Positions 24,006-62,193 of a stretch of 64,000 bases of DNA are shown in pieces. The stretch is from NCBI GenBank assembly GCA_009268125.1, contig WBOU01000004.1, positions 148,494 through 212,493 of the forward strand. Direction: 5' to 3'. The DNA comes from Chloroflexia bacterium SDU3-3 (GTDB lineage Bacteria > Chloroflexota > Chloroflexia > Chloroflexales > Roseiflexaceae). The notes under the pieces are model-generated. The model saw nothing but the letters and a program-made list of their open reading frames with translations, was not told where the DNA came from and made no database searches. The translations under genes and the position numbers were made by a program. The stretch's first letter is position 1. Every line of letters starts with the position of its first letter.

Positions 24006-24490
24006 CATTTTGGGTGAAAGCGCATCTATGCCCATACCGATCTGGCATGGAATAACCTAGGTAAATCCGAGCATGCTATGCTTTTAGAAAGCCAAGCACT
24101 ATGCTTTAGGAAAGAACCTGCACATGCCGCATCCGCGCGGCGCTATGTCTTCACCTATTGGGAACGCTCTCAAGATTATGGCAGAGAGTATAGAAGAGCC
24201 GCCAGGTTTTGTCAAGTTGATGTTACTGTGATACCCGAAGTATAGCTTATGTTCTCCATTAAACACAAGCCCATGTTTAATGAGAAAAAACTCACTTTCC
24301 CACAGGCAGTGCGGCTAGCTGCTTGCACAGAAGGAGAGCGAGGCTGCAAAGCTGGGGGCGCTTACTTTCCCAAAACGACGGCGCGGTAGCGGTACCACGG
24401 GCTGCGCACCGCAGGAGAGGTCACATTTGACGTTGGTCTGGCGCGGATCTGACATGAGCGCGGGCGATAGTGCGTGTTGAGGAGGCGGAT

Positions 24491-24655
24491 GCCCTGCGCG
24501 GGCAGCGCCGAGGGGCTAGCCCCTAGGAACCCCACAAGGGGGCGTCGCACCCTCCGAACCCCCAATGTTGAGCGTTCCGATGCTGCTCGCTGGCGGCTGG
24601 TGTTCGTGCATATGGCCAGTTTGCACGAGCGGCACCTTCGCCACATGGGCGGGGT
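24491..24655. repeat. about 165-bp repeat, copy 1; its paralog lies at 36401-36565 beside the IS element
   Basis: Roughly 85% identity to 36401-36565. Contains the 14-bp palindrome AGGGGCTAGCCCCT and shared blocks GGCTGGTGTTCGTGCATATGGCCAGTTTGC and GGCACCTTCGCC. Confidence 0.8.
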
Positions 24656-24805
24656 GGGCTGAACGGCGCAGCGCAATTCTGCTTTGCAGGCATACCCTGG
24701 CGCGCGAGATGATGTGCACGATCGCACCCACATGCTCTGCGCAGAAATGTGATTGCCTCGTAGGGCGTGCTATACTACCCCCTACGAGGCATATCAAAGC
24801 TACCT

Positions 24806-30992: not shown

Positions 30993-33008
30993 ATGGGGGC
31001 AATGCTCCTCCTCAACATGATCGGCATCTTCATCATCGTTATCGCGGTGCTCTGGATCTTCTTCCAGTTCGTCCGCTTCATCCCGAACAACCGCATCGGC
31101 ATCGTCGAGAAGCGCTTCGGCGGCAAGTCGGTCAAGAGCGGCCTGATCGCGCTGAACCACGAGGCGGGCTTCCAGCCCAACGTGCTGCGCGGCGGCATCC
31201 ACTTCTTCACGCCGTTCCAGTACAACCTGCACATCGTGCCGCTGGTCACCATCCCGCAGGGCAAGATCGGCTACGTGTTCGCCCGCGACGGCCAAGCCCT
31301 GGCCCCGGCGCAGACCCTGGCCTCGAACGTGGCGGCCAACGACTTCCAGGATGTGGCCAGCTTCCTGCGCAGCGGCGGCCAGCGCGGCCCGCAGCGCCAG
31401 ATCCTGCGCGAGGGCACCTACGCCATCAACCTCGCCCAGTTCATGGTGATCACCGAGGAGCGTGTCTACTACCTGCCGCTCAGCCGCGACGAGGACGCCA
31501 TGATCAAGCGCATGGCCGAGGTGATCAGCGACCGCGACGGCTTCGAGCCGGTGGTGATCAAGGATACCGACGACGCGGTGGGCATCGTGACGGTGCACGA
31601 CGGCCCCTCGCTGGGCGAGGGCGAGATCATCGCCCCGCTGGTGGGCAACGAGCCAAGTACACCCGAGACCTACCACAACAGCTTCCAGGACCCCGAGAAG
31701 TTCCTGGCGGCGGGCGGCCAGCGCGGTCGCCAGTACCAGGTGCTGGTCGAGGGCACCTACTACATCAACCGCCTGTTCGCCACCGTCGAGCTGATCGACA
31801 AGACCGTGATCGAGGTGGGCTACGCCGGTGTGGTCATCTCCTACGCAGGCGAGATAGGGGCCGACCTCTCGGGCGAGGACTACACCCACGGCGAGCTGGT
31901 GAGCCGTGGCAGCCGTGGCGTGTGGAGCACCCCGCTGATGCCCGGCAAGTACGCCTTCAACACCTACGCCGGCCAGGTGGTGCCGGTGCCCACCACCAAT
32001 ATCATCCTGAAGTGGAGCCGCAGCGAGATCGGCGCGCACAAGCTAGATGAGAACCTGTCGGAGATCTCGCTGATCACCAAGGACGCCTTCGAGCCGTCGC
32101 TGCCGCTCTCGGTGGTGGTGCACATCGACTACCGCAAGGCCCCGCTGGTCATCCAGCGCTTCGGCGATGTGAAGCGGCTGGTCGAGCAGACACTCGACCC
32201 CATGGTGGCGGCCTACTTCAAGAATATCGGCCAGACCCGCACGCTCATCCAGCTGCTCCAGGAGCGCAGCGTCATCCAGTCGCTGGCCAGCGAGCAGATG
32301 CGCGAGAAGTTCGTCAACTACAACCTGGAGCTGGAGGAGGTGCTGATCGGCACGCCGTCATCCGGCAAGGGCGACACCAAGATCGAGGACATCCTGACCC
32401 AGCTGCGCGCCCGCCAGATCGCCGAGGAGCAGATCGAGACCTACGCGCGGCAGGAGAAGGCGGCGGTGAAGGAGCGCGAGCTGCGCGAGGCCGAGGCCCG
32501 CGCCAAGCAGCAGGCCGTGCTCACCCAGTCCGAGCTGTCGATCACCGTGCAGTCGAACGAGGGCAAGGCCGAGTACCAGCGCGCCCTGCAGCAGGCCGCC
32601 CAGATCCGCGCCCTGGCCGAGGCCGAGGCCGAGAAGACCGCCCGCATCGGCGTGGCCGAGGCGATCGCCATCGAGGAGAAGGTGCGCGCCTACGGCGGCC
32701 CGCAGTTCCAGGTGACGCAGCAGGTGATGACCCGCTTCGCGGATGCGATCGAGGCCGCCAAGGTCAACATCGTGCCACAGGTGGTGGTGGGCGGCGGCAG
32801 CGAGGGCGGCAGCAGCAGCCAGAACCTGATGGAGGGCCTGCTGGCCACGCTGCTGTCGGAGAAGCTGGGAGTGCCGATCAATGCGGTAGCCGATGCCAAG
32901 CCCGAGGTGTCGGCCATGCGCGAGCAGATCCTGCGCCAGCTCTCGTCGGAGCTGCCCAAGGCGGGCCAGCCGCCGGTGGCCCCGCCGCAGCCCAACGGCA
33001 GCAAGTAG
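30993..33008 (+). CDS. flotillin-like SPFH/band-7 protein
   Basis: N-terminal TM helix, SPFH domain, long Ala/Glu/Gln-rich coiled-coil (EAEARAKQQAVLTQSELS...). ATG 30993 with RBS. Confidence 0.8.
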   Translation: MGAMLLLNMIGIFIIVIAVLWIFFQFVRFIPNNRIGIVEKRFGGKSVKSGLIALNHEAGFQPNVLRGGIHFFTPFQYNLHIVPLVTIPQGKIGYVFARDGQALAPAQTLASNVAANDFQDVASFLRSGGQRGPQRQILREGTYAINLAQFMVITEERVYYLPLSRDEDAMIKRMAEVISDRDGFEPVVIKDTDDAVGIVTVHDGPSLGEGEIIAPLVGNEPSTPETYHNSFQDPEKFLAAGGQRGRQYQVLVEGTYYINRLFATVELIDKTVIEVGYAGVVISYAGEIGADLSGEDYTHGELVSRGSRGVWSTPLMPGKYAFNTYAGQVVPVPTTNIILKWSRSEIGAHKLDENLSEISLITKDAFEPSLPLSVVVHIDYRKAPLVIQRFGDVKRLVEQTLDPMVAAYFKNIGQTRTLIQLLQERSVIQSLASEQMREKFVNYNLELEEVLIGTPSSGKGDTKIEDILTQLRARQIAEEQIETYARQEKAAVKERELREAEARAKQQAVLTQSELSITVQSNEGKAEYQRALQQAAQIRALAEAEAEKTARIGVAEAIAIEEKVRAYGGPQFQVTQQVMTRFADAIEAAKVNIVPQVVVGGGSEGGSSSQNLMEGLLATLLSEKLGVPINAVADAKPEVSAMREQILRQLSSELPKAGQPPVAPPQPNGSK

Positions 33009-33035
33009 CCCCGACGCGGCATCGCCGCACAAACA

Positions 33036-33080
33036 CGACAAAGGCCCCAGGCAGTGCGCCTGGGGCCTTTGTCGTGTTTT
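33036..33080 (+). terminator. rho-independent terminator after the flotillin gene
   Basis: acaaaggcccca-ggcagtgcgcc-tggggcctttgt followed by cgtgtttt. Confidence 0.6.
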
Positions 33081-33336
33081 GGATGTGTTACATAGCTGTT
33101 ACATGACCTTGATGTCGCTGTGAGGATGCCATGGTATACAGGCATGTATCACCACACAAGACGATCAGGAGGAGATTATGGCACCTGTTCAAGCTAGCCG
33201 AACGCCCGCGTTCATAGAAATAGCCTCAGGAAACCCCCGCTCTTTAGGCGGGGGAGGAATGAGGCTTTACCCACATTCCTCGCTTGTACAAGGTTCCAGC
33301 GTCGCCGCATTCAGCGGCGCGGGCATCCGACGTTCA

Positions 33337-33753
33337 CTAAAGTTTCTGGCACTCTAGGATGTACCGCTTAATCACCGATGCACTCACGTGCCCTGCGGTG
33401 CCGACGTCATAAGAAGGTGCCCACAACGTGCCAACTTTCCAGATATGGCGGTCAATCTCTGTAGGGAACTCTTGCCGCAAAACACGCGACGTTGTTCCCT
33501 TAAAGAGTTGGGCCAGTTGCGCAGGACTGAACTTTGGCGGCGCGGAAACGAATAGGTGAATGTGATCCGGCATGACTTCCTGTGCGACCACTTCAATCCC
33601 CCATCGCTCCGCAATCTCACCGAGAAGCCCTTGCAATCGTTCCTGAATCTTGCCAACAAGCACCGGACAGCGGTACTTCGGGCACCACACCAGGTGGTAG
33701 TTGATGTGGTACCGTGCTCCCGGCGTTGATTTGACATGCGTAACTTCCATCAC
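33337..33753 (-). CDS. tnpA: IS200/IS605-family transposase TnpA (Y1 HUH)
   Basis: 138 aa. HUH motif (PDHIHLFVSAPP) and a catalytic-Tyr region (SYDVGTAGHVSASVIKRYI). GTG start overlaps the upstream ORF's TGA. Confidence 0.85.
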   Translation of the reverse strand: MMEVTHVKSTPGARYHINYHLVWCPKYRCPVLVGKIQERLQGLLGEIAERWGIEVVAQEVMPDHIHLFVSAPPKFSPAQLAQLFKGTTSRVLRQEFPTEIDRHIWKVGTLWAPSYDVGTAGHVSASVIKRYILECQKL

Positions 33754-34304
33754 GCTGCAACCCGAACGGCTGGCAAGCCAGCGAGTACCCGCGCTCGTGC
33801 GTGGGCGATGCGGGGAGCAAGACTGGCGAGGCTTGGCGCTTGGGTGAGTGCTTCCAGATCCTCGTCACCTTCGATGTACGCTCGAACGAACGCAACGCCG
33901 ATATGACCCGCAAACCGTCCTACCTCAGTCAAGTCAACCTCAACATCGCTAGCTTTGAACGTTACACCATCAATTTCGTGATCAGGGCCTGTCCACCGCT
34001 CTACCTCTACAGGTTGCGATGTATCGCGACCAATCAAGCGGCGAATGTCAGGATGTTCAAGCAGGTAAGACAGGGCGCGCAACTCGGCAATACCGGAAGC
34101 CTTGAAATCAGCCGTTCGGTCAAGTGCATCAAGATAGCCAACCCAGCCATCTTCCGAGTCGTCAAACAGGGCCAGCTTGACCTTGCCACACACATAAGCG
34201 GTGCATTCCCGTTCGTCGTTGTGTTCGGTGGTAACTACATCCTCAGGAATGGTAGCGGGGGCTTCCTGATTGACTGCCGCCTCGCTGTGTGCGTTCTCAA
34301 GCAA
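33750..34304 (-). CDS. unknown acidic protein (ORF-X), coupled to tnpA; possibly part of a longer 232-aa ORF interrupted by an in-frame TAG
   Basis: 184 aa with no internal Met and a weak TTG start without RBS. The same frame continues upstream past one TAG (34311-34313) into a 45-aa ORF with ATG near 34449 and RBS GGAAGGA. The TGA stop overlaps the tnpA GTG (GTGA). Confidence 0.45.
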   Translation of the reverse strand: MLENAHSEAAVNQEAPATIPEDVVTTEHNDERECTAYVCGKVKLALFDDSEDGWVGYLDALDRTADFKASGIAELRALSYLLEHPDIRRLIGRDTSQPVEVERWTGPDHEIDGVTFKASDVEVDLTEVGRFAGHIGVAFVRAYIEGDEDLEALTQAPSLASLAPRIAHARARVLAGLPAVRVAA

Positions 34305-34550
34305 TTTGTACTACTCGGCGTTGCAGAGCGTTTCACCTTCGCCGTAAGGAGAGCGGCTGCCAAGATAGTTCTCGGTGCCATTGGCAAAGATGAGATAGCA
34401 GTTGTCGTCGCGGGTGATTCGGTCGTAGCGGATTGACTTTGTGGTAGAATCGGCTTGCATTGGAACTCGTCCTTCCAGTGTAGTGGCCTCGTGGGTGGTA
34501 CGAACACCTGCGGGGCCGCGCTTCGTTTCTGTGCCTGTATTATAGCACAG

Positions 34551-34604
34551 TGTACCTACATTATATATACATGTATTGCAATATAGGTACATATGTGATA
34601 TACT
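34551..34604 (+). promoter_or_regulatory. nested 41-bp palindromic operator overlapping a sigma70-like promoter for the HTH-tnpB transcript
   Basis: TGTACCTA...TACATGTA...TAGGTACA, symmetric about 34571/72. -35 TTGCAA (34576-81), 17-bp spacer, -10 TATACT (34599-604). Confidence 0.45.
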
Positions 34605-34650
34605 GCGTACAGTTACGATATACTCTTGCACAGGGGAAGGAGCAAACAGC

Positions 34651-34908
34651 ATGCAAGGGTTTCCTATGCCTATTCGAAGTCGCGTAAAGGTACTTCTAGC
34701 GGAACGCAACTTAGATCGAACACGTTCAGGCGAGGAGTTGATTAGCGTCCGTCGGTTGTCTCGTGAGACAGGGATTACCCACTCGGCGCTCGTGAAGCTC
34801 GTAAACAACCAAAGCGAACGTGTAGACTTTGAGACGCTTGATAAACTCATGCGTTTTTTCGAGACGACGGACATTCGCGATATTCTGGAGTACACCCCCG
34901 CCGAATGA
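34651..34908 (+). CDS. small XRE/Cro-type helix-turn-helix protein, translationally coupled to tnpB
   Basis: 85 aa: MQGFPMPIRSRVKVLLAERNLDRTRSGEELISVRRLSRETGITHSALVKLVNNQSERVDFETLDKLMRFF.... RBS GAAGGAG 7 nt upstream. Its TGA overlaps the tnpB ATG (ATGA). Confidence 0.65.
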   Translation: MQGFPMPIRSRVKVLLAERNLDRTRSGEELISVRRLSRETGITHSALVKLVNNQSERVDFETLDKLMRFFETTDIRDILEYTPAE

Positions 34909-36020
34909 AGCTCACCGCTCAAATCCAGCTTCGCCCCACACCCGCGCAAGCCGATGCCCTCAGGCGCACGCTTGAAACGGCAAACGCCGCGTGCAACGCA
35001 ATGAGCGCAACGGCGTGGGAAACGGGTACGTTCGGGCAATTCGCTTTGCACAAGCTGTGCTATGCCGATACACGGGCCGCATTCGGTCTGTCGGCGCAAG
35101 TGACGGTGCGCTGCATTGCGAAAGTTGCCGATGCCTACAAGCTGGATAAGAAGGCGCAGCGCACGTTTGCACTGCTTGGTGCCGTGGCCTATGACGCGCG
35201 CATCCTGTCGTTTAATCTCGCCGGTTCCTCGGTCTCCATCTGGACAATGGATGGGCGTCAGGCTATCCCCTTCGTGTGTGGCGAACGCCAGCGGGCGATG
35301 CTTGAACACCAGAAGGGTGAAAGCGATCTGGTGTTCAAGCGCGGTAAGTGGTACTTGCTTGTTACCTGCGAGGCAGTGCCAGCGGGAACAGAATGCGCGT
35401 CGGGCGTGTTGGGCGTTGCTCTTGGTGTGACGAACATTGCCACCGATAGCGACGGCACCATCTACAGCGGCAAGGCTATCAAGAACGTGCGTTATCGCCA
35501 TCGGCGGTTGCGTGGCAAACTCCAAAAGAAGGGCACCAAAAGCGCACGGCGACGGCTTCAAGCCCTGTCGGGTAAGGAATATCGGTTCGCACGGCACGTA
35601 AACCATGTCCTCAGTAAGCAGCTTGTGGCGACGGCCAAACGCACGAAGCGGGCGATTGCGTTGGAAGATTTGACGCATATTCGCACGCGGGTTAGGGCTA
35701 GACGGTCGCAGCACGCCACGCTGCACAGTTGGGCATTCGCACAACTGCGGGCGTTTGTCACCTATAAGGCGCAATTGGCGGGTGTGACCGTCCATTTTGT
35801 CGACCCTCGGAATACATCGCGGGAATGCCCGAACGGTGGACATACCGCGAAAGAGAACCGGAAAACACAAGCCTCGTTTGTTTGCACATCGTGCGGGTTC
35901 GCTGGCCTCGCAGATGTGATCGCGGCAGGAAACATTTCCCGCCGGGCGGCTGTAAACCCGCCACACGGCTCGCGAGACGGTACTCCTACCGGGCTGGCAG
36001 GGCCAAAGCCTGCGGCTTAA
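34905..36020 (+). CDS. tnpB: TnpB (IS605 OrfB family; RuvC-like RNA-guided nuclease), catalytic residues intact
   Basis: 371 aa. RuvC-I (GVALGVTNIATDSDG), RuvC-II (AIALEDLTHIR), zinc finger (CPNGGH...CTSCGF), RuvC-III (GLADVIAAGNI). Confidence 0.85.
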   Translation: MKLTAQIQLRPTPAQADALRRTLETANAACNAMSATAWETGTFGQFALHKLCYADTRAAFGLSAQVTVRCIAKVADAYKLDKKAQRTFALLGAVAYDARILSFNLAGSSVSIWTMDGRQAIPFVCGERQRAMLEHQKGESDLVFKRGKWYLLVTCEAVPAGTECASGVLGVALGVTNIATDSDGTIYSGKAIKNVRYRHRRLRGKLQKKGTKSARRRLQALSGKEYRFARHVNHVLSKQLVATAKRTKRAIALEDLTHIRTRVRARRSQHATLHSWAFAQLRAFVTYKAQLAGVTVHFVDPRNTSRECPNGGHTAKENRKTQASFVCTSCGFAGLADVIAAGNISRRAAVNPPHGSRDGTPTGLAGPKPAA

Positions 36021-36400
36021 GCCGTGGGTTGTTTACTGCATTCAGTAGCTCGCTGGCTGCCTTTATCTTGGAGTGCGCGATTGTACCAGCCGCCCATCTC
36101 CTGCCAGAAAAAGCTGGATTCTATGCCTTTTCATGGAGCATCGCGCTAACGTTGATCCTCGCATCTGTGGGGGTTTTCCTTGGAGATGTGAGCTATAGAC
36201 AGTCGCAGAACAGATATTCACTGCTTGGGATGATTGGGGGTATGCTTGTGTTGATTCTGTTTCTTATCGGTATGTTCGCACTGATGCAGCCGCAAGCAGT
36301 TTCGCTGGATTGTGTGAGGGCCAGCCCGCTCAACAGATGTCACTTTTGAGCCTTTTGTGCGCCATCCCCGAGCACGGTACTTCTTGATGGGTGGGTGGGT

Positions 36401-36565
36401 GCCCTGCGCGGGCGGCGCCTAGGGGCTAGCCCCTAGGAACCCCACGAGGGGGCGTTGCCCCCTTCGATCTCCCAATTTTGGGCGTTCCCGTGCGGTCCGC
36501 AAGCGGCTGGTGTTCGTGCATATGGCCAGTTTGCCGTCGCGGCACCTTCGCCGCATGGGAAGGGT
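36401..36565. repeat. about 165-bp repeat, copy 2; paralog of 24491-24655
   Basis: See copy 1. Lies about 380 bp downstream of the tnpB stop, outside the inferred right-end hairpin. Confidence 0.8.
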
Positions 36566-36716
36566 GAGATGCCGCGCCTCGATTATTGCCCATGCGGTTG
36601 AGATTGAGCTTTCGCACCCGCAATGCGGTGGGCAGGGTTTGGCACGATAGCTTGTGATATCTACTCTACCAGCCCAGATATATACTTTCCCTGTAGTGAC
36701 ACAAAACGACCGCTAT

Positions 36717-37679
36717 CTAATAGCGCGCCACCACATCCACCACCACCTGCGCCGCCAGCGCATCGATCACAGCCGAGGCGCTCAGGCCCGCGCCCAGCTT
36801 GCTGATCGCATCCACCGAGAACGCCGTGGACAGCCGCGCCACCTCGGGTAGGGGCAGCCCGCGCAGGTGGCCCGCCACGATCCCCGCCACCATCGCGTCG
36901 CCAGCGCCCACCGTGCTCACCACCGCCACCTCGGGCGGCGCGGCGCGCACCGCCTCGTGCGCGGTGACGAACAGCGCACCATCCGGCCCCAGCGAGACCA
37001 CCACCAGATCATCCTCGCCCACGATCAGCTCGTGCGCGGCGGCCAGGATGGCCTCCTCGGTGGCCAGCATCCTGCCGAGCAGCTCCTCCAGCTCCTGGAT
37101 GTTGGGCTTGATCACCGAGGGCCGGGCCGCCAGCGCGTGGCGCAGCGGCGGGCCGCTGGTGTCCAACACCACGCGGCAGCCGCGCGACTTCAGCACGCGG
37201 ATGAGGTCGCGGTAGATGCCCGCATCCACCCCCGGCGGCAGGCTGCCCGAGAGCACCGCCCAGGGCGCGTGGATCTGGCCCAGCGCGGCCAGCAGCGCCT
37301 CGGCGTCGGCGGGGCTGGGCGCGGCACCGGGGAAGTTGATGTCGGTGGTGGCGCTCATGGCCGGGTCGATGATCTTGATGCCCACGCGGGTCTGGCCATC
37401 GATGCGCACAAAGGCATCGTGGATGCGCTTCTGGGCAAACATCTGCTCGAAGGATGCCGCGTTCTCGCGGCCCAGAAAGCCGGTGACGGAGACCGTATGG
37501 CCGGCATCCGCCAGCGCGGCGGCCACATTCACGCCCTTGCCGCCGGGGTGGTCGTGCACCGACTCGGCGCGGTTGACGCGGCCAGCGGTGAAGCTGTGGA
37601 TCTCCACCGTGCGGTCGATCGCGGGGTTCAGCGTGACGGTGACAACATCGCACGCATGCGGCAAAACGGGATCACTCAT
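36717..37679 (-). CDS. fruK: 1-phosphofructokinase (PfkB family)
   Basis: 320 aa. Ribokinase-like motifs VVLDTSGPPL and VGAGDAMVAGIV. Last gene of the fructose PTS operon. Confidence 0.75.
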   Translation of the reverse strand: MSDPVLPHACDVVTVTLNPAIDRTVEIHSFTAGRVNRAESVHDHPGGKGVNVAAALADAGHTVSVTGFLGRENAASFEQMFAQKRIHDAFVRIDGQTRVGIKIIDPAMSATTDINFPGAAPSPADAEALLAALGQIHAPWAVLSGSLPPGVDAGIYRDLIRVLKSRGCRVVLDTSGPPLRHALAARPSVIKPNIQELEELLGRMLATEEAILAAAHELIVGEDDLVVVSLGPDGALFVTAHEAVRAAPPEVAVVSTVGAGDAMVAGIVAGHLRGLPLPEVARLSTAFSVDAISKLGAGLSASAVIDALAAQVVVDVVARY

Positions 37680-60267: not shown

Positions 60268-60822
60268 CTAATCGATCGGCGGCAGGCTCAGCACACGCGC
60301 GATCGTCTCATCAAGCCACACGATCTCGTCCTGATAGCTGCGGATGCCATAGTCCAAGGTGATCTGCCAGAGCGTGCGGATGCGCTCGGGCACATCGCTA
60401 GCATTCGCATCCAGGTAGCTCTGGCCGCTGGTCTGGTAGGTATGGATGCGCTCGCGCATCATATCGCGCCGCGCCTCCAGCACCCTGGCGATCTCCTCGT
60501 TCTGCAGGCCGTGCGCGAAAAAGATCTGGATGAGCCAGGCCGATCGCACCGGCTCGGGGCGCAGCGGGGTGGAGAGCCAAGTGCGCAGCTCGGCCCGCCC
60601 AGCCTCGGTGATGTGGTACTCCTTGCGGTTTGGCAGGTCATCCTGCTGCACCAGCTCTTTCTGTACCCAACCCTTGGCCTCAAGCTCGCCAAGCGCCTTG
60701 TAGATATGGCTTTGGGTTGCAGTCCAAAAGTGCGCAACTGAATTATCGAAAAATTTCTTCAGGTCATAGCCCGTCATCGGGCTGTAGCCAAGAAAGGCGA
60801 GGATCGCATGTTCGAGCGGCAT
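60268..60822 (-). CDS. PadR-family transcriptional regulator
   Basis: MPLEHAILAFLGYSPMTGYDLKKFF...IYKALGELEAKGWV is a PadR winged-helix domain. Confidence 0.8.
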   Translation of the reverse strand: MPLEHAILAFLGYSPMTGYDLKKFFDNSVAHFWTATQSHIYKALGELEAKGWVQKELVQQDDLPNRKEYHITEAGRAELRTWLSTPLRPEPVRSAWLIQIFFAHGLQNEEIARVLEARRDMMRERIHTYQTSGQSYLDANASDVPERIRTLWQITLDYGIRSYQDEIVWLDETIARVLSLPPID

Positions 60823-60825
60823 TGC

Positions 60826-60875
60826 TATACCTCCATGAGAGTATATCTACATAGACATACTCTCATGGAGGTATA
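60826..60875. promoter_or_regulatory. perfect 19-20-bp inverted repeat immediately upstream of PadR (candidate operator)
   Basis: tatacctccatgagagtata-(10 bp)-tatactctcatggaggtata. Confidence 0.45.
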
Positions 60876-61012
60876 CATTTGTCAAGAGGGAATGTAAATG
60901 GAGTGCTCAGGTACTCTGAGGGCAGGTAACCCAAGCGAGCACAGCCAGAGCGGGGGTGCTATAATGCCCGCGCGGTTGCCATTTCTCAACCAAGAGGAAA
61001 GAGGGAACAACC

Positions 61013-61366
61013 ATGCCACGCGCTCTGCGGGTGCTGACCCAAAGCCTGCTGCTGACGTGCCCGGCCTGCCAGCACGGCAATATGTTCCGCTCGGGGTTTC
61101 GAATGAATGTGCGCTGCCCGGTGTGCCACGTGGTGTTCGAGCGCGACAGCGGCGAGCTGACTGGCGGGCTGGCGATCAACGCCACGCTGACCATGGCCAT
61201 CGCCATGGTGGGCGCGGGCTTCGCCTTCAGCCCCGAGGTGCCGATCATCCCGCTGGTATTGCTGCTGGCGGGGATTGTGGTGCTGTTCCCGCTGGTGTTC
61301 TACCGTCACGCGCGCGGGCTATGGGTGGGGATCCTCTACCTCACGGGGTCGATGTTCGAGGACTAG
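61013..61366 (+). CDS. DUF983-like zinc-ribbon membrane protein
   Basis: CPACQHG...CPVCH zinc ribbon followed by 2 TM helices. Confidence 0.5.
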   Translation: MPRALRVLTQSLLLTCPACQHGNMFRSGFRMNVRCPVCHVVFERDSGELTGGLAINATLTMAIAMVGAGFAFSPEVPIIPLVLLLAGIVVLFPLVFYRHARGLWVGILYLTGSMFED

Positions 61367-62193
61367 GGCGCGGCCTCGGCGAAGAGCGGCAGCAGCGCAT
61401 CGGTCGGGGCGTGCTCGAAGCGCACCTCGGCAAACAGCCGCCGCAGCGCCGCCACCTGATCAGCCAGGGGCTGCTGCTCAGGCTGCCGCACCTTCCACTC
61501 GCCCCGGCCCTGCTTGACGATCAGCTCGTAGTTCGAGCGCACCACCAGCGTGTGGTCCGCCGCACCCGGCATAGCCCCAGCCGCATCTAGCGCGGCCACC
61601 AGGGCCTGGTAGATCGCGGTGGGCTGGGTGACGCCGCGCGCCACCGGCTGCGCCCCGCTGCGGCGCTCGGCACCGGCCTGCACCAGCCACTGCACCGGCC
61701 TGCCTGCGGCGGGCGAGAGCAGCGCCAGCACCCACGCCCCAGTAGGCGCGGCCTCGGGGCGGGCCGATTCAGCGCGCTGATAGGCGCGGGCGGCGGCCTG
61801 GTTGGCGGCCTCGTTCACGCGCTCGTTGCGCAGGTCGCCGCTGTGGCCGCGCACCCACTGGCCATGGATGCTATGCACCCGCGACAGCGCCAGCAGGCGC
61901 GCCCACAGCTCGCGGTTCTTCTCGGGCAGGCCTGCGCCCGCCCGCAGCCGCTCAAGCCCCTGCAGCACATACTGCGAGTCGGCCCGCAGCATCACCGCGC
62001 AGGGCTTCTTCAGCACATCTAGCCCGCCGATCACCGCGCGCAGCTCCATGGCATTGTTGGTGGTGGGCATCGGCTCCTCGCCCACCACCAGCTTCTCCTT
62101 GCCATTGGCCTCAAGCAGGGCGGCCCAGCCGCCAGGGCCGGGGTTGCCGCGCGCGGCACCGTCGGTGGTCAGGGTCACAGTGGGTAGTGGCAT
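61363..62193 (-). CDS. rnhA: ribonuclease HI with a C-terminal extension of about 130 aa
   Basis: TDGAARGNPGPGGWAALL...NNAMELRAVIGGL...VRGHSGDLRNERVNEAANQAA, then an unassigned C-terminal domain. Stop overlaps the neighbouring start. Confidence 0.75.
   Translation of the reverse strand: MPLPTVTLTTDGAARGNPGPGGWAALLEANGKEKLVVGEEPMPTTNNAMELRAVIGGLDVLKKPCAVMLRADSQYVLQGLERLRAGAGLPEKNRELWARLLALSRVHSIHGQWVRGHSGDLRNERVNEAANQAAARAYQRAESARPEAAPTGAWVLALLSPAAGRPVQWLVQAGAERRSGAQPVARGVTQPTAIYQALVAALDAAGAMPGAADHTLVVRSNYELIVKQGRGEWKVRQPEQQPLADQVAALRRLFAEVRFEHAPTDALLPLFAEAAP

Follow-up and report, generated by a model that had tools for sequence, protein, structure and literature searches.

A candidate helix-turn-helix repressor cassette between the divergent tnpA and tnpB genes of an IS605-family transposon from a Chloroflexia bacterium

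The IS200/IS605 insertion sequences (IS) have long been seen as minimal, cargo-free transposons, and the locus described here raises the question of what a palindrome is doing over the promoter of a small helix-turn-helix (HTH) gene that runs directly into tnpB. This locus lies in a stretch of 64,000 nucleotides of Chloroflexia bacterium SDU3-3 (GenBank assembly GCA_009268125.1, contig WBOU01000004.1, positions 148,494 to 212,493, forward strand), which we call the window and number from its first letter; related loci are cited by L numbers. Judged by its ends and genes, the segment 33211-36036 (2826 bp) is an IS605-family transposon, and the account that we favor, and hold to be probable, is that a phage-type regulatory cassette has replaced the short promoter stretch that separated its divergently oriented tnpA and tnpB, with the HTH protein repressing both operons.

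A first-pass annotation of this DNA had described a 41-bp nested palindrome centered at 34571 and overlapping the -35 box of a near-consensus promoter of the HTH gene. The features that bear on this description are the following.

34531-34541, + strand: third operator copy, degenerate, GTGCCTGTATT, a direct repeat 21 bp left of the left arm that overlaps the leftward -10
34551-34562, + strand: left operator arm, TGTACCTACATT (repeat search, alignment of relatives, core count)
34580-34591, + strand: right operator arm, AATATAGGTACA, overlapping the -35 and spacer of P1
34576-34604, + strand: predicted rightward promoter P1, TTGCAA (34576-34581), 17 nt, TATACT (34599-34604), with TG at 34596-97 (promoter scan)
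34619-34624, + strand: second TATACT, candidate -10 of a tandem promoter GTGATA (34595-34600)-18-TATACT (promoter scan)
34539-34547, - strand: predicted leftward promoter for gene X and tnpA, extended -10 TGCTATAAT with a weak -35 (read from the sequence)
34483-34519, + strand: hairpin with a T-rich tail (terminator scan; compensatory changes in 11 of 15 pairs across nine loci)
34651-34908, + strand: HTH gene, putative repressor of 85 amino acids, HTH_26 (Cro/C1, XRE-type) (Pfam HTH_26 48.6 bits, above the cut-off of 22)

The 41-bp outer repeat can be read directly, its arms TGTACCTACATT and AATATAGGTACA agreeing at 11 of 12 positions across 17 nt; the outermost arm ends are TGTACCTA (34551-34558) and TAGGTACA (34584-34591), and the arms lengthen to 12 nt with one mismatch. 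The word nested, on the other hand, did not survive, because the inner palindrome TACATGTA (34568-34575) has its center at 34571.5, half a base off that of the outer repeat, and is not conserved, the spacers of relatives being wholly different; this part is therefore probably incidental. As for the promoter, its overlap with the palindrome was borne out by the promoter scan, with the right arm sharing 2 nt with the TTGCAA box of P1 and otherwise occupying the spacer before TATACT. By itself, the anatomy of the palindrome is only mildly unusual: the window contains about 35 inverted repeats of its class, and when 34500-34650 was shuffled 5000 times, 34 of the shuffles (0.7%) yielded one. The evidence that we regard as decisive is conservation.

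We compared the upstream regions of nine genes of the HTH family (the window, L001, L002, L003, L085, L086, L160, L162, and L163), and they align as one architecture. Leftmost is a structured hairpin followed by a T-rich tail. Next come two GTACCTAnATT copies that point the same way, the first of them overlapping a leftward TGCTA(C/T)AAT box, and then, across a spacer of free sequence, an inverted copy. A TGTGATAnAAT box, a TATACT that never varies, a ribosome-binding site (RBS), and ATG CAA complete the series on the right. In the 1215 nt upstream of these genes we counted 16 GTACCTA cores, against one in 97 kb elsewhere, which amounts to an enrichment of about 1300-fold. Furthermore, the spacing between the arms is fixed while the sequence between them is free: plus and minus copies stand 32 nt apart in the window, L001, L085, and L003, and 31 nt apart in L163, while L160 keeps the 32-nt spacing with the core GTACCTC. 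Intact third copies at 21-bp spacing are present in L085, L003, and L160, and the two spacings of 32 and 21 nt correspond to three and two helical turns. In L164 and L196, whose regulators are non-homologous, no GTACCTA core was found upstream of the regulator gene, and motif and recognition helix therefore travel together. Since the motif is confined to loci with the same HTH type, the HTH protein is most likely the binder of the GTACCTAnATT copies, and the suggestion that the palindrome is a genuine operator-type site above a promoter is upheld by the conservation of these cores and their co-occurrence with the HTH family, binding being predicted.

The HTH gene starts at an ATG at 34651 behind the RBS GAAGGAG (34637-43), with an alternative ATG at 34666, and ends in a TGA (34906-08) that overlaps the tnpB ATG at 34905 (ATGA). 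A small XRE-type gene whose stop overlaps tnpB had been annotated already, and both the assignment and the overlap hold, the two genes being translationally coupled; the same junction recurs in two more lineages, L084/L160 (ATGA) and L196 (GTGA). XRE proteins in the PDB match the window protein at E=1e-4, its Pfam search gave no ribbon-helix-helix (RHH) match, and it has no cleavable C-terminal domain. At least 39 homologues share 57-100% identity with it, and their recognition-helix region, TG-I/L-THSALV, is near-invariant. A further observation concerns the start of this gene, where ACTCTTGCA (34622-34630) can pair with TGCAAGGGT (34652-34660), so that the RBS would fall within the loop and the start codon within the stem; the same pairing is possible in L160, L086, and L002, and it could account for the conserved MQG N-terminus and provide translational control.

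The HTH gene and its operators also occur without tnpB, in phage- or satellite-like loci, and the module is therefore not tnpB-specific. At these loci the best HTH homologues have a strand to themselves, and the operons that diverge from them contain ERF, VapE, integrase, or methylase (N6_N4_Mtase) genes; what follows the HTH gene varies (no gene; a GIY-YIG gene in L002; a KAP NTPase gene in L162); neither a transposon left end (LE) nor a right end (RE) was found there. Relatives were absent from IMG/VR viral contigs searched with the HTH profile, and those in sequenced phages and plasmids are only 33-39% identical. Distant relatives are annotated as regulators of Streptococcus satellite phages.

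Regarding transcription, P1 aligns with the TTGACA ... TGTGATAnAAT of relatives, and the second TATACT is invariant in nine of nine related loci. On the opposite strand, the predicted leftward promoter of the window has a perfect extended -10 (TGCTATAAT, + strand 34547-34539) and a poor -35, and its counterpart TGCTACAAT is accompanied by a TTGACA -35 in L001, L085, and L163. In L001, where the arms reach 17 bp, TTGACA is present on either strand, and the palindrome would therefore house the -35 boxes of two back-to-back promoters. The single rightward promoter first described is thus present in the prediction yet incomplete as a description, a predicted leftward promoter for gene X and tnpA sharing the operators, and control of the transposase is therefore probable too. 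Neither a terminator nor a promoter was predicted on the + strand at the HTH-tnpB junction. The hairpin at 34483-34519 folds as single-stranded DNA (ssDNA) with z=-2.75, contains many G-U pairs, which occur on the + strand only, and recurs left of the operators in both IS and phage-like contexts (the window and eight loci); it is probably a rightward intrinsic terminator that shields the switch from upstream read-through.

The question then becomes what kind of unit contains this module, and its remaining parts are these.

33211-33273, + strand: LE, TTCATAGAAAT followed by a nested stem-loop (AGCCTCA ... CCCCCGC-loop-GCGGGGG ... TGAGGCT) (LE profile of relatives, nhmmer E=1e-14)
33337-33753, - strand: tnpA, Y1 HUH transposase, pointing to LE (Pfam Y1_Tnp E=8e-38; HIH and C-terminal Tyr present)
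33750-34460, - strand: gene X, heading the leftward operon (ATG at 34460, stop at 33750, overlapping the tnpA start as GTGATG)
34905-36020, + strand: tnpB, 371 amino acids (Pfam TNB, a zinc ribbon, and OrfB_IS605)
35880-36036, + strand: probable omega-RNA scaffold and RE (RE profile of relatives, E=3e-10)

The order is LE, tnpA and gene X on the minus strand, operators with divergent promoters, HTH gene and tnpB on the plus strand, and RE, so that the classical divergent layout of IS605 is kept, with its intergenic promoter region enlarged to 1.15 kb by the cassette of gene X, operators, and HTH gene. A Y1 HUH TnpA, a TnpB with a zinc ribbon, and asymmetric ends with subterminal hairpins place it in the IS605 group of the IS200/IS605 family. 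The tnpA gene of Helicobacter pylori IS605 likewise points towards LE, and the window TnpA is 74% identical to that of L164, which has the same position and orientation. The window LE, TTCATAGAAATAGCCTCAGGAAACCCCCGC...GCGGGGGAGGAATGAGGCT, is oriented as in a canonical relative (P0055, TnpB 73%, L168-L177), which occupies at least two sites and has the left end CTCATAGAAATAAGCGCGCGGAAACC... and the right end ...GTCGTTTAC; as ssDNA it folds with z=-4.65, with compensatory changes in five pairs, and the two insertion sites of L168 and L169 place the LE start at CTCATAGAAAT. At the other side, the window RE reads ...AAAGCCTGCGGCTTAAGCCGTGGGTTGTTTAC and the element ends ...GTTGTTTAC at 36036, a boundary fixed by L168 versus L173 and L084 versus L160, which diverge directly past RE. 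The RE terminal stem AGCCTGCGGCTT/AAGCCGTGGGTT holds the tnpB stop codon in its loop, and its pairing is kept by differing sequences in L084, L164, L168, and L196.

Moreover, the last 157 nt of the element form a series of stem-loops (RNA fold z=-2.9) and are a probable omega-RNA scaffold; a search of 32800-37000 against all Rfam families, at E up to 1, gave spurious matches only and no omega-RNA family. The LE and RE hairpins are GC-rich, alike, and on one strand; in L168-L177 the inner LE hairpin CCGCCGCC TTCA GGCGTGCGG and the RE hairpin CCGCCGCC TTTA GGCGTGCGG are near identical, as expected if a single TnpA recognizes both ends. The tnpB-only relatives have an LE 60-125 nt upstream of tnpB, and none lies between the HTH gene and tnpB of the window. 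A target-adjacent motif (TAM) or other target motif was not derivable from six left flanks.

Gene X carries an in-frame TAG at 34311-34313, 49 codons in, where a relative (P0161) has a Cys codon and reads through, and the NCBI annotation covers only the downstream part of 184 amino acids. Weak similarity links its N-terminal domain to the gene that comes first on the leftward side in L001 and in L164, its homologues number two among the matches listed, and its Pfam and PHROG searches gave no match; an AlphaFold model built on three alignment rows reached a predicted local distance difference test (pLDDT) score of 46, too low for use.

The most informative comparison is with L164-166 (P0041), whose TnpB, 78% identical, is the closest on record among the matches listed. 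L164 runs LE, about 65 nt, tnpA(-), a gene resembling X(-), a palindrome, an RHH gene(+), tnpB(+), and RE, and this unit breaks up a series of phage-type genes on the minus strand (helicase, primase-like, Dam). Its DNA is homologous to the window in two blocks, 33211-33751 (tnpA with the 126 nt that follow its 3' end) and 34905-36042 (from the tnpB ATG to past the stop), and unrelated in the interior. There, a 66-amino-acid Arc-like RHH protein, matching RHH_5 and an Arc-like PHROG, takes the place of the HTH protein, and the palindrome is a perfect one of 26 bp with TTGACA in both arms, TGTCAATAACAAT|ATTGTTATTGACA (L164 2580-2620). A second group, L196-198 (P0043, TnpB 76%), has a different HTH_26 protein, 29% identical to that of the window, whose gene overlaps tnpB and is accompanied by its own inverted repeat, GTCAAT-N22-ATTGAC (about 395-440), with a TTGACA -35 in both arms. 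In the third, L084/L160/L161, the HTH protein is 82% and TnpB 60% identical to the window; L084 and L160 share 98% identity as far as GGGGGTAATTGAC in RE and are unrelated past it, as expected for a mobile unit.

Because L164 keeps the architecture with an RHH gene and a different palindrome, and L196 carries a distant HTH_26, the repressor cassette is exchangeable between sister elements. Within one narrow clade (TnpB at least 75% identical), a single slot is thus occupied by regulators that are non-homologous, namely an Arc-like RHH and two types of HTH_26; a separate palindrome goes with every regulator, and phage- or satellite-like elements share one of the cassettes. Non-homologous regulators in one slot argue that self-repression is under selection in these transposons, and the pattern suggests movement of regulatory cassettes between phages and insertion sequences.

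Taken as a whole, repression of both the HTH-tnpB and the X-tnpA operon by the HTH protein would be the most likely function of the module. The protein would bind the repeated GTACCTAnATT sites as an oligomer on one DNA face; at the right arm it would block the -35 and spacer of its own promoter, resulting in negative autoregulation of the HTH-tnpB operon, which would be transcribed as one unit. Bound at the left arm and the degenerate third copy, it would block the spacer and -10 of the leftward promoter and so repress X-tnpA. Provided that both promoters are active, the stop-start overlaps at the two junctions would relay this control to tnpB and tnpA, and transposase and RNA-guided nuclease would be kept at a low level, as by Arc in other IS605 elements.

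The copy in the window, for its part, does not appear to be in good order. Codon 172 of tnpB (35418-35420) is GCT, so that Ala replaces the RuvC-I Asp through a single-base change, while Glu254 and Asp337 are kept; this Asp is present in 80 of 80 aligned TnpB relatives, and the sister elements L084, L164, and L196 keep it too. The window TnpB is probably nuclease-dead, and because of this change (D172A) and the nonsense codon of gene X the copy is probably decaying. Exact-protein look-ups of the window TnpA and TnpB returned no record in that form, and one copy of the exact window proteins is on record among the matches listed, the HTH and TnpB proteins matching records of Chloroflexia bacterium SDU3-3 at 100%. 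In reference genomes, a collection that lacks the source genome, this HTH is missing from all 80 of the nearest TnpB loci; 18 TnpB loci in viral contigs had neither this HTH, a nearby tnpA, nor an upstream regulator gene; and, of about 110 TnpB loci inspected, only the window, L084, L164, and L196 groups have a small regulator gene directly upstream. N-terminally extended TnpB database entries proved to be ordinary LE-promoter regions, without hidden upstream HTH genes. The tnpB coding sequence also contains, at 35299-35341, an inverted repeat whose arms (GCTTGAACACCAGA / TCTGGTGTTCAAGC) measure about 16 nt.

Other explanations of the locus were weighed against repression of both operons. A phage-type two-state switch captured by IS605, with X antagonizing the HTH protein, is rather unlikely in our estimate; one state would have repressor and TnpB on, with silence and RNA-guided retention, and the other X and TnpA on, with mobilization. 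Were it true, the exchange of entire cassettes (two HTH types and the Arc-like RHH) among sister elements and phages or satellites would create immunity groups, related IS605 copies in one cell being regulated independently. Nor do we think it likely, and somewhat less so, that the region is a remnant of prophage or satellite immunity, with the HTH protein as maintenance repressor, tnpA and tnpB as unrelated IS genes that landed on either side, and control of tnpB incidental. The close homologues of HTH gene and operator beside ERF, VapE, integrase, and N6_N4_Mtase genes without tnpB, the varying gene downstream, the satellite phage annotations, and the low GC content of the island speak for such an origin, but other phage genes are absent from the island, and the cassette is bracketed by a single LE and a single RE, which belong to the same IS clade and stand in correct relative orientation. 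Moreover, the LE that tnpB-only relatives have 60-125 nt away is missing upstream of the window tnpB, the frame from LE and tnpA(-) to tnpB and RE is kept in L164 despite a non-homologous interior, and start-stop overlaps are found at both junctions and recur in other lineages. The related view that tnpB had inserted beside a phage repressor gene was rejected on account of the LE 1.7 kb upstream and the architecture of L164.

Nuclease-dead TnpB repressors are reportedly known, from work attributed to Wiegand and colleagues in 2024, and the loci of these TldR proteins are said to be without LE, RE, and tnpA. Domestication of the dead TnpB (D172A) as an RNA-guided regulator of this type, with the HTH protein controlling a host-beneficial gene, is nevertheless very unlikely: an Ala in place of an Asp kept by 80 relatives would suit it, yet this is a single-base change in one copy and not a clade-wide catalytic loss, LE, RE, and tnpA are intact, and the adjacent nonsense codon points to decay rather than selection. 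Scarcely credible, finally, is the view that the Y1 transposase uses the palindrome as an ssDNA hairpin signal, at an internal site resembling an end, or that the palindrome arose by chance in AT-rich intergenic DNA. IS200/IS605 ends do act via hairpins, and the segment is AT-rich and its repeat arises by chance in a few shuffles, as given above. Against this, the true LE and RE hairpins are GC-rich, alike, and elsewhere, and the half-sites also occur as direct repeats and at loci without Y1 transposase or IS ends, with spacing rather than spacer sequence conserved. Folding of the palindrome as ssDNA did not exceed that of shuffles (z=-0.55), and the palindrome therefore fits a duplex protein-binding site and not a transposase hairpin; on these grounds it was rejected as a transposon-end hairpin.

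Several points weigh against the account in which the HTH protein represses both operons. The case for binding, transcription, and transposition of the window element is built on sequence, and the chance statistics of the palindrome alone are a weak argument. The promoter calls are consensus matches, predicted at three sites per 4 kb against 2.0 expected, without enrichment above chance, and the real -10 could be either of the two TATACT boxes. Half-sites of a simple HTH dimer usually lie 10-11 bp apart, from which the 32-bp spacing departs; two or three units binding cooperatively on one DNA face appear more likely than a simple dimer. Given the tnpB-less loci, the HTH protein may have targets or roles outside the transposon. 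The full structure from LE to RE with the cassette is seen in two lineages, the window and L164, the left parts of L084 and L196 being off-contig. The different right flanks of the related units L084 and L160 would fit mobility; for the window element itself, one copy of the exact proteins is on record among the matches listed, and no empty insertion site was found.

Three observations outside the element are recorded for completeness. Low-GC DNA right outside RE holds a possible open reading frame (ORF) of 93 amino acids (36069-36349, + strand, TTG start) with two transmembrane segments, without a Pfam match when searched as part of an ORF of 174 amino acids. The intergenic region that holds the transposon also contains, close to its right side, a 173-nt GC-rich repeat (36394-36566) that is 85% identical to 24484-24656. 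Additionally, an inverted repeat at 60825-60876, with arms of about 25 nt (CTATACCTCCATGAGAGTATATCTA / complement) between ORFs 60268-60822(-) and 60898-61590(+), may be another operator.

How new this arrangement is depends on the systems with which it is compared. The first-pass annotation held that repressor-controlled tnpB expression was undescribed for IS605, a statement that has become outdated, since the RHH protein Arc was found to bind and repress a bidirectional IS605 promoter in ChIP-seq (chromatin immunoprecipitation sequencing) and reporter assays (Moon, Zedaveinyte, Wiegand, and Sternberg, 28 Sep 2026, bioRxiv 10.64898/2026.09.24.754181). That promoter lies between tnpB and arc-tnpA, a tnpB-promoter reporter was repressed, and the motifs cover a -35 in one direction and a -10 in the other; HTH/XRE regulators go unmentioned in the preprint (bioRxiv 10.64898/2026.09.24.754181). 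Rare HTH cargo genes have been noted in some branches of TnpB transposons (Altae-Tran et al., 2023). Repressor control of IS605 promoters was thus demonstrated in September 2026 for the RHH protein Arc only, and the window locus is the HTH counterpart of the Arc-regulated IS605, its new aspects being a non-homologous HTH protein in the same slot, cassette exchange, and the phage or satellite link. Furthermore, it offers a compact set of parts (repressor, 41-bp operator, and two predicted promoters) for studies of TnpA/TnpB balance or for switchable TnpB expression.

The likeness to Arc-IS605 lies in a small regulator inside the IS, divergent tnpA and tnpB genes flanking a bidirectional promoter (predicted in the window), motifs on the tnpB-side -35 and the tnpA-side -10, and a regulator gene that overlaps a transposon gene; the Arc-like RHH gene of L164 sits in exactly the slot of the HTH gene. 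The window regulator differs in being a Cro/C1 HTH_26 protein rather than an RHH one, and in standing upstream of tnpB instead of tnpA; the window also has the extra gene X before tnpA, three phased sites (32 and 21 bp), and an adjacent structured element that is probably a terminator. With lambdoid and satellite immunity (CI/Cro) it shares back-to-back promoters (predicted in the window), a -35 within an inverted repeat, multiple phased operators, a small HTH protein as putative repressor, specificity cassettes swapped between conserved flanks, and closest non-IS homologues in phage-like loci. The HTH side of such a switch is present, while gene X has no recognizable domain, the last genes of the flanking operons are tnpA and tnpB instead of lytic or lysogenic ones, and the HTH protein lacks a cleavable C-terminal domain.

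The canonical relatives L167 and L168-L177 have homologous LE and RE, TnpB proteins 73-74% and TnpA proteins about 49-51% identical (63% in L022), and an RE ending in GTTTAC, but they measure about 1.7 kb, run from LE through TTGACA-17-TATACT into tnpA and tnpB in one direction, and have no regulator gene. In phage Mu, with Ner and repressor c acting on genes A and B, and in Tn3 with TnpR, as in the window by our account, a DNA-binding protein of the element itself acts at a divergent promoter and controls the transposition genes. A small HTH gene in Mu is the first gene of an operon that continues into transposition genes. Those elements differ in their DDE chemistry, as against the single-strand chemistry of a Y1 HUH transposase, in that TnpR is also a resolvase, and in sequence, which is unrelated.

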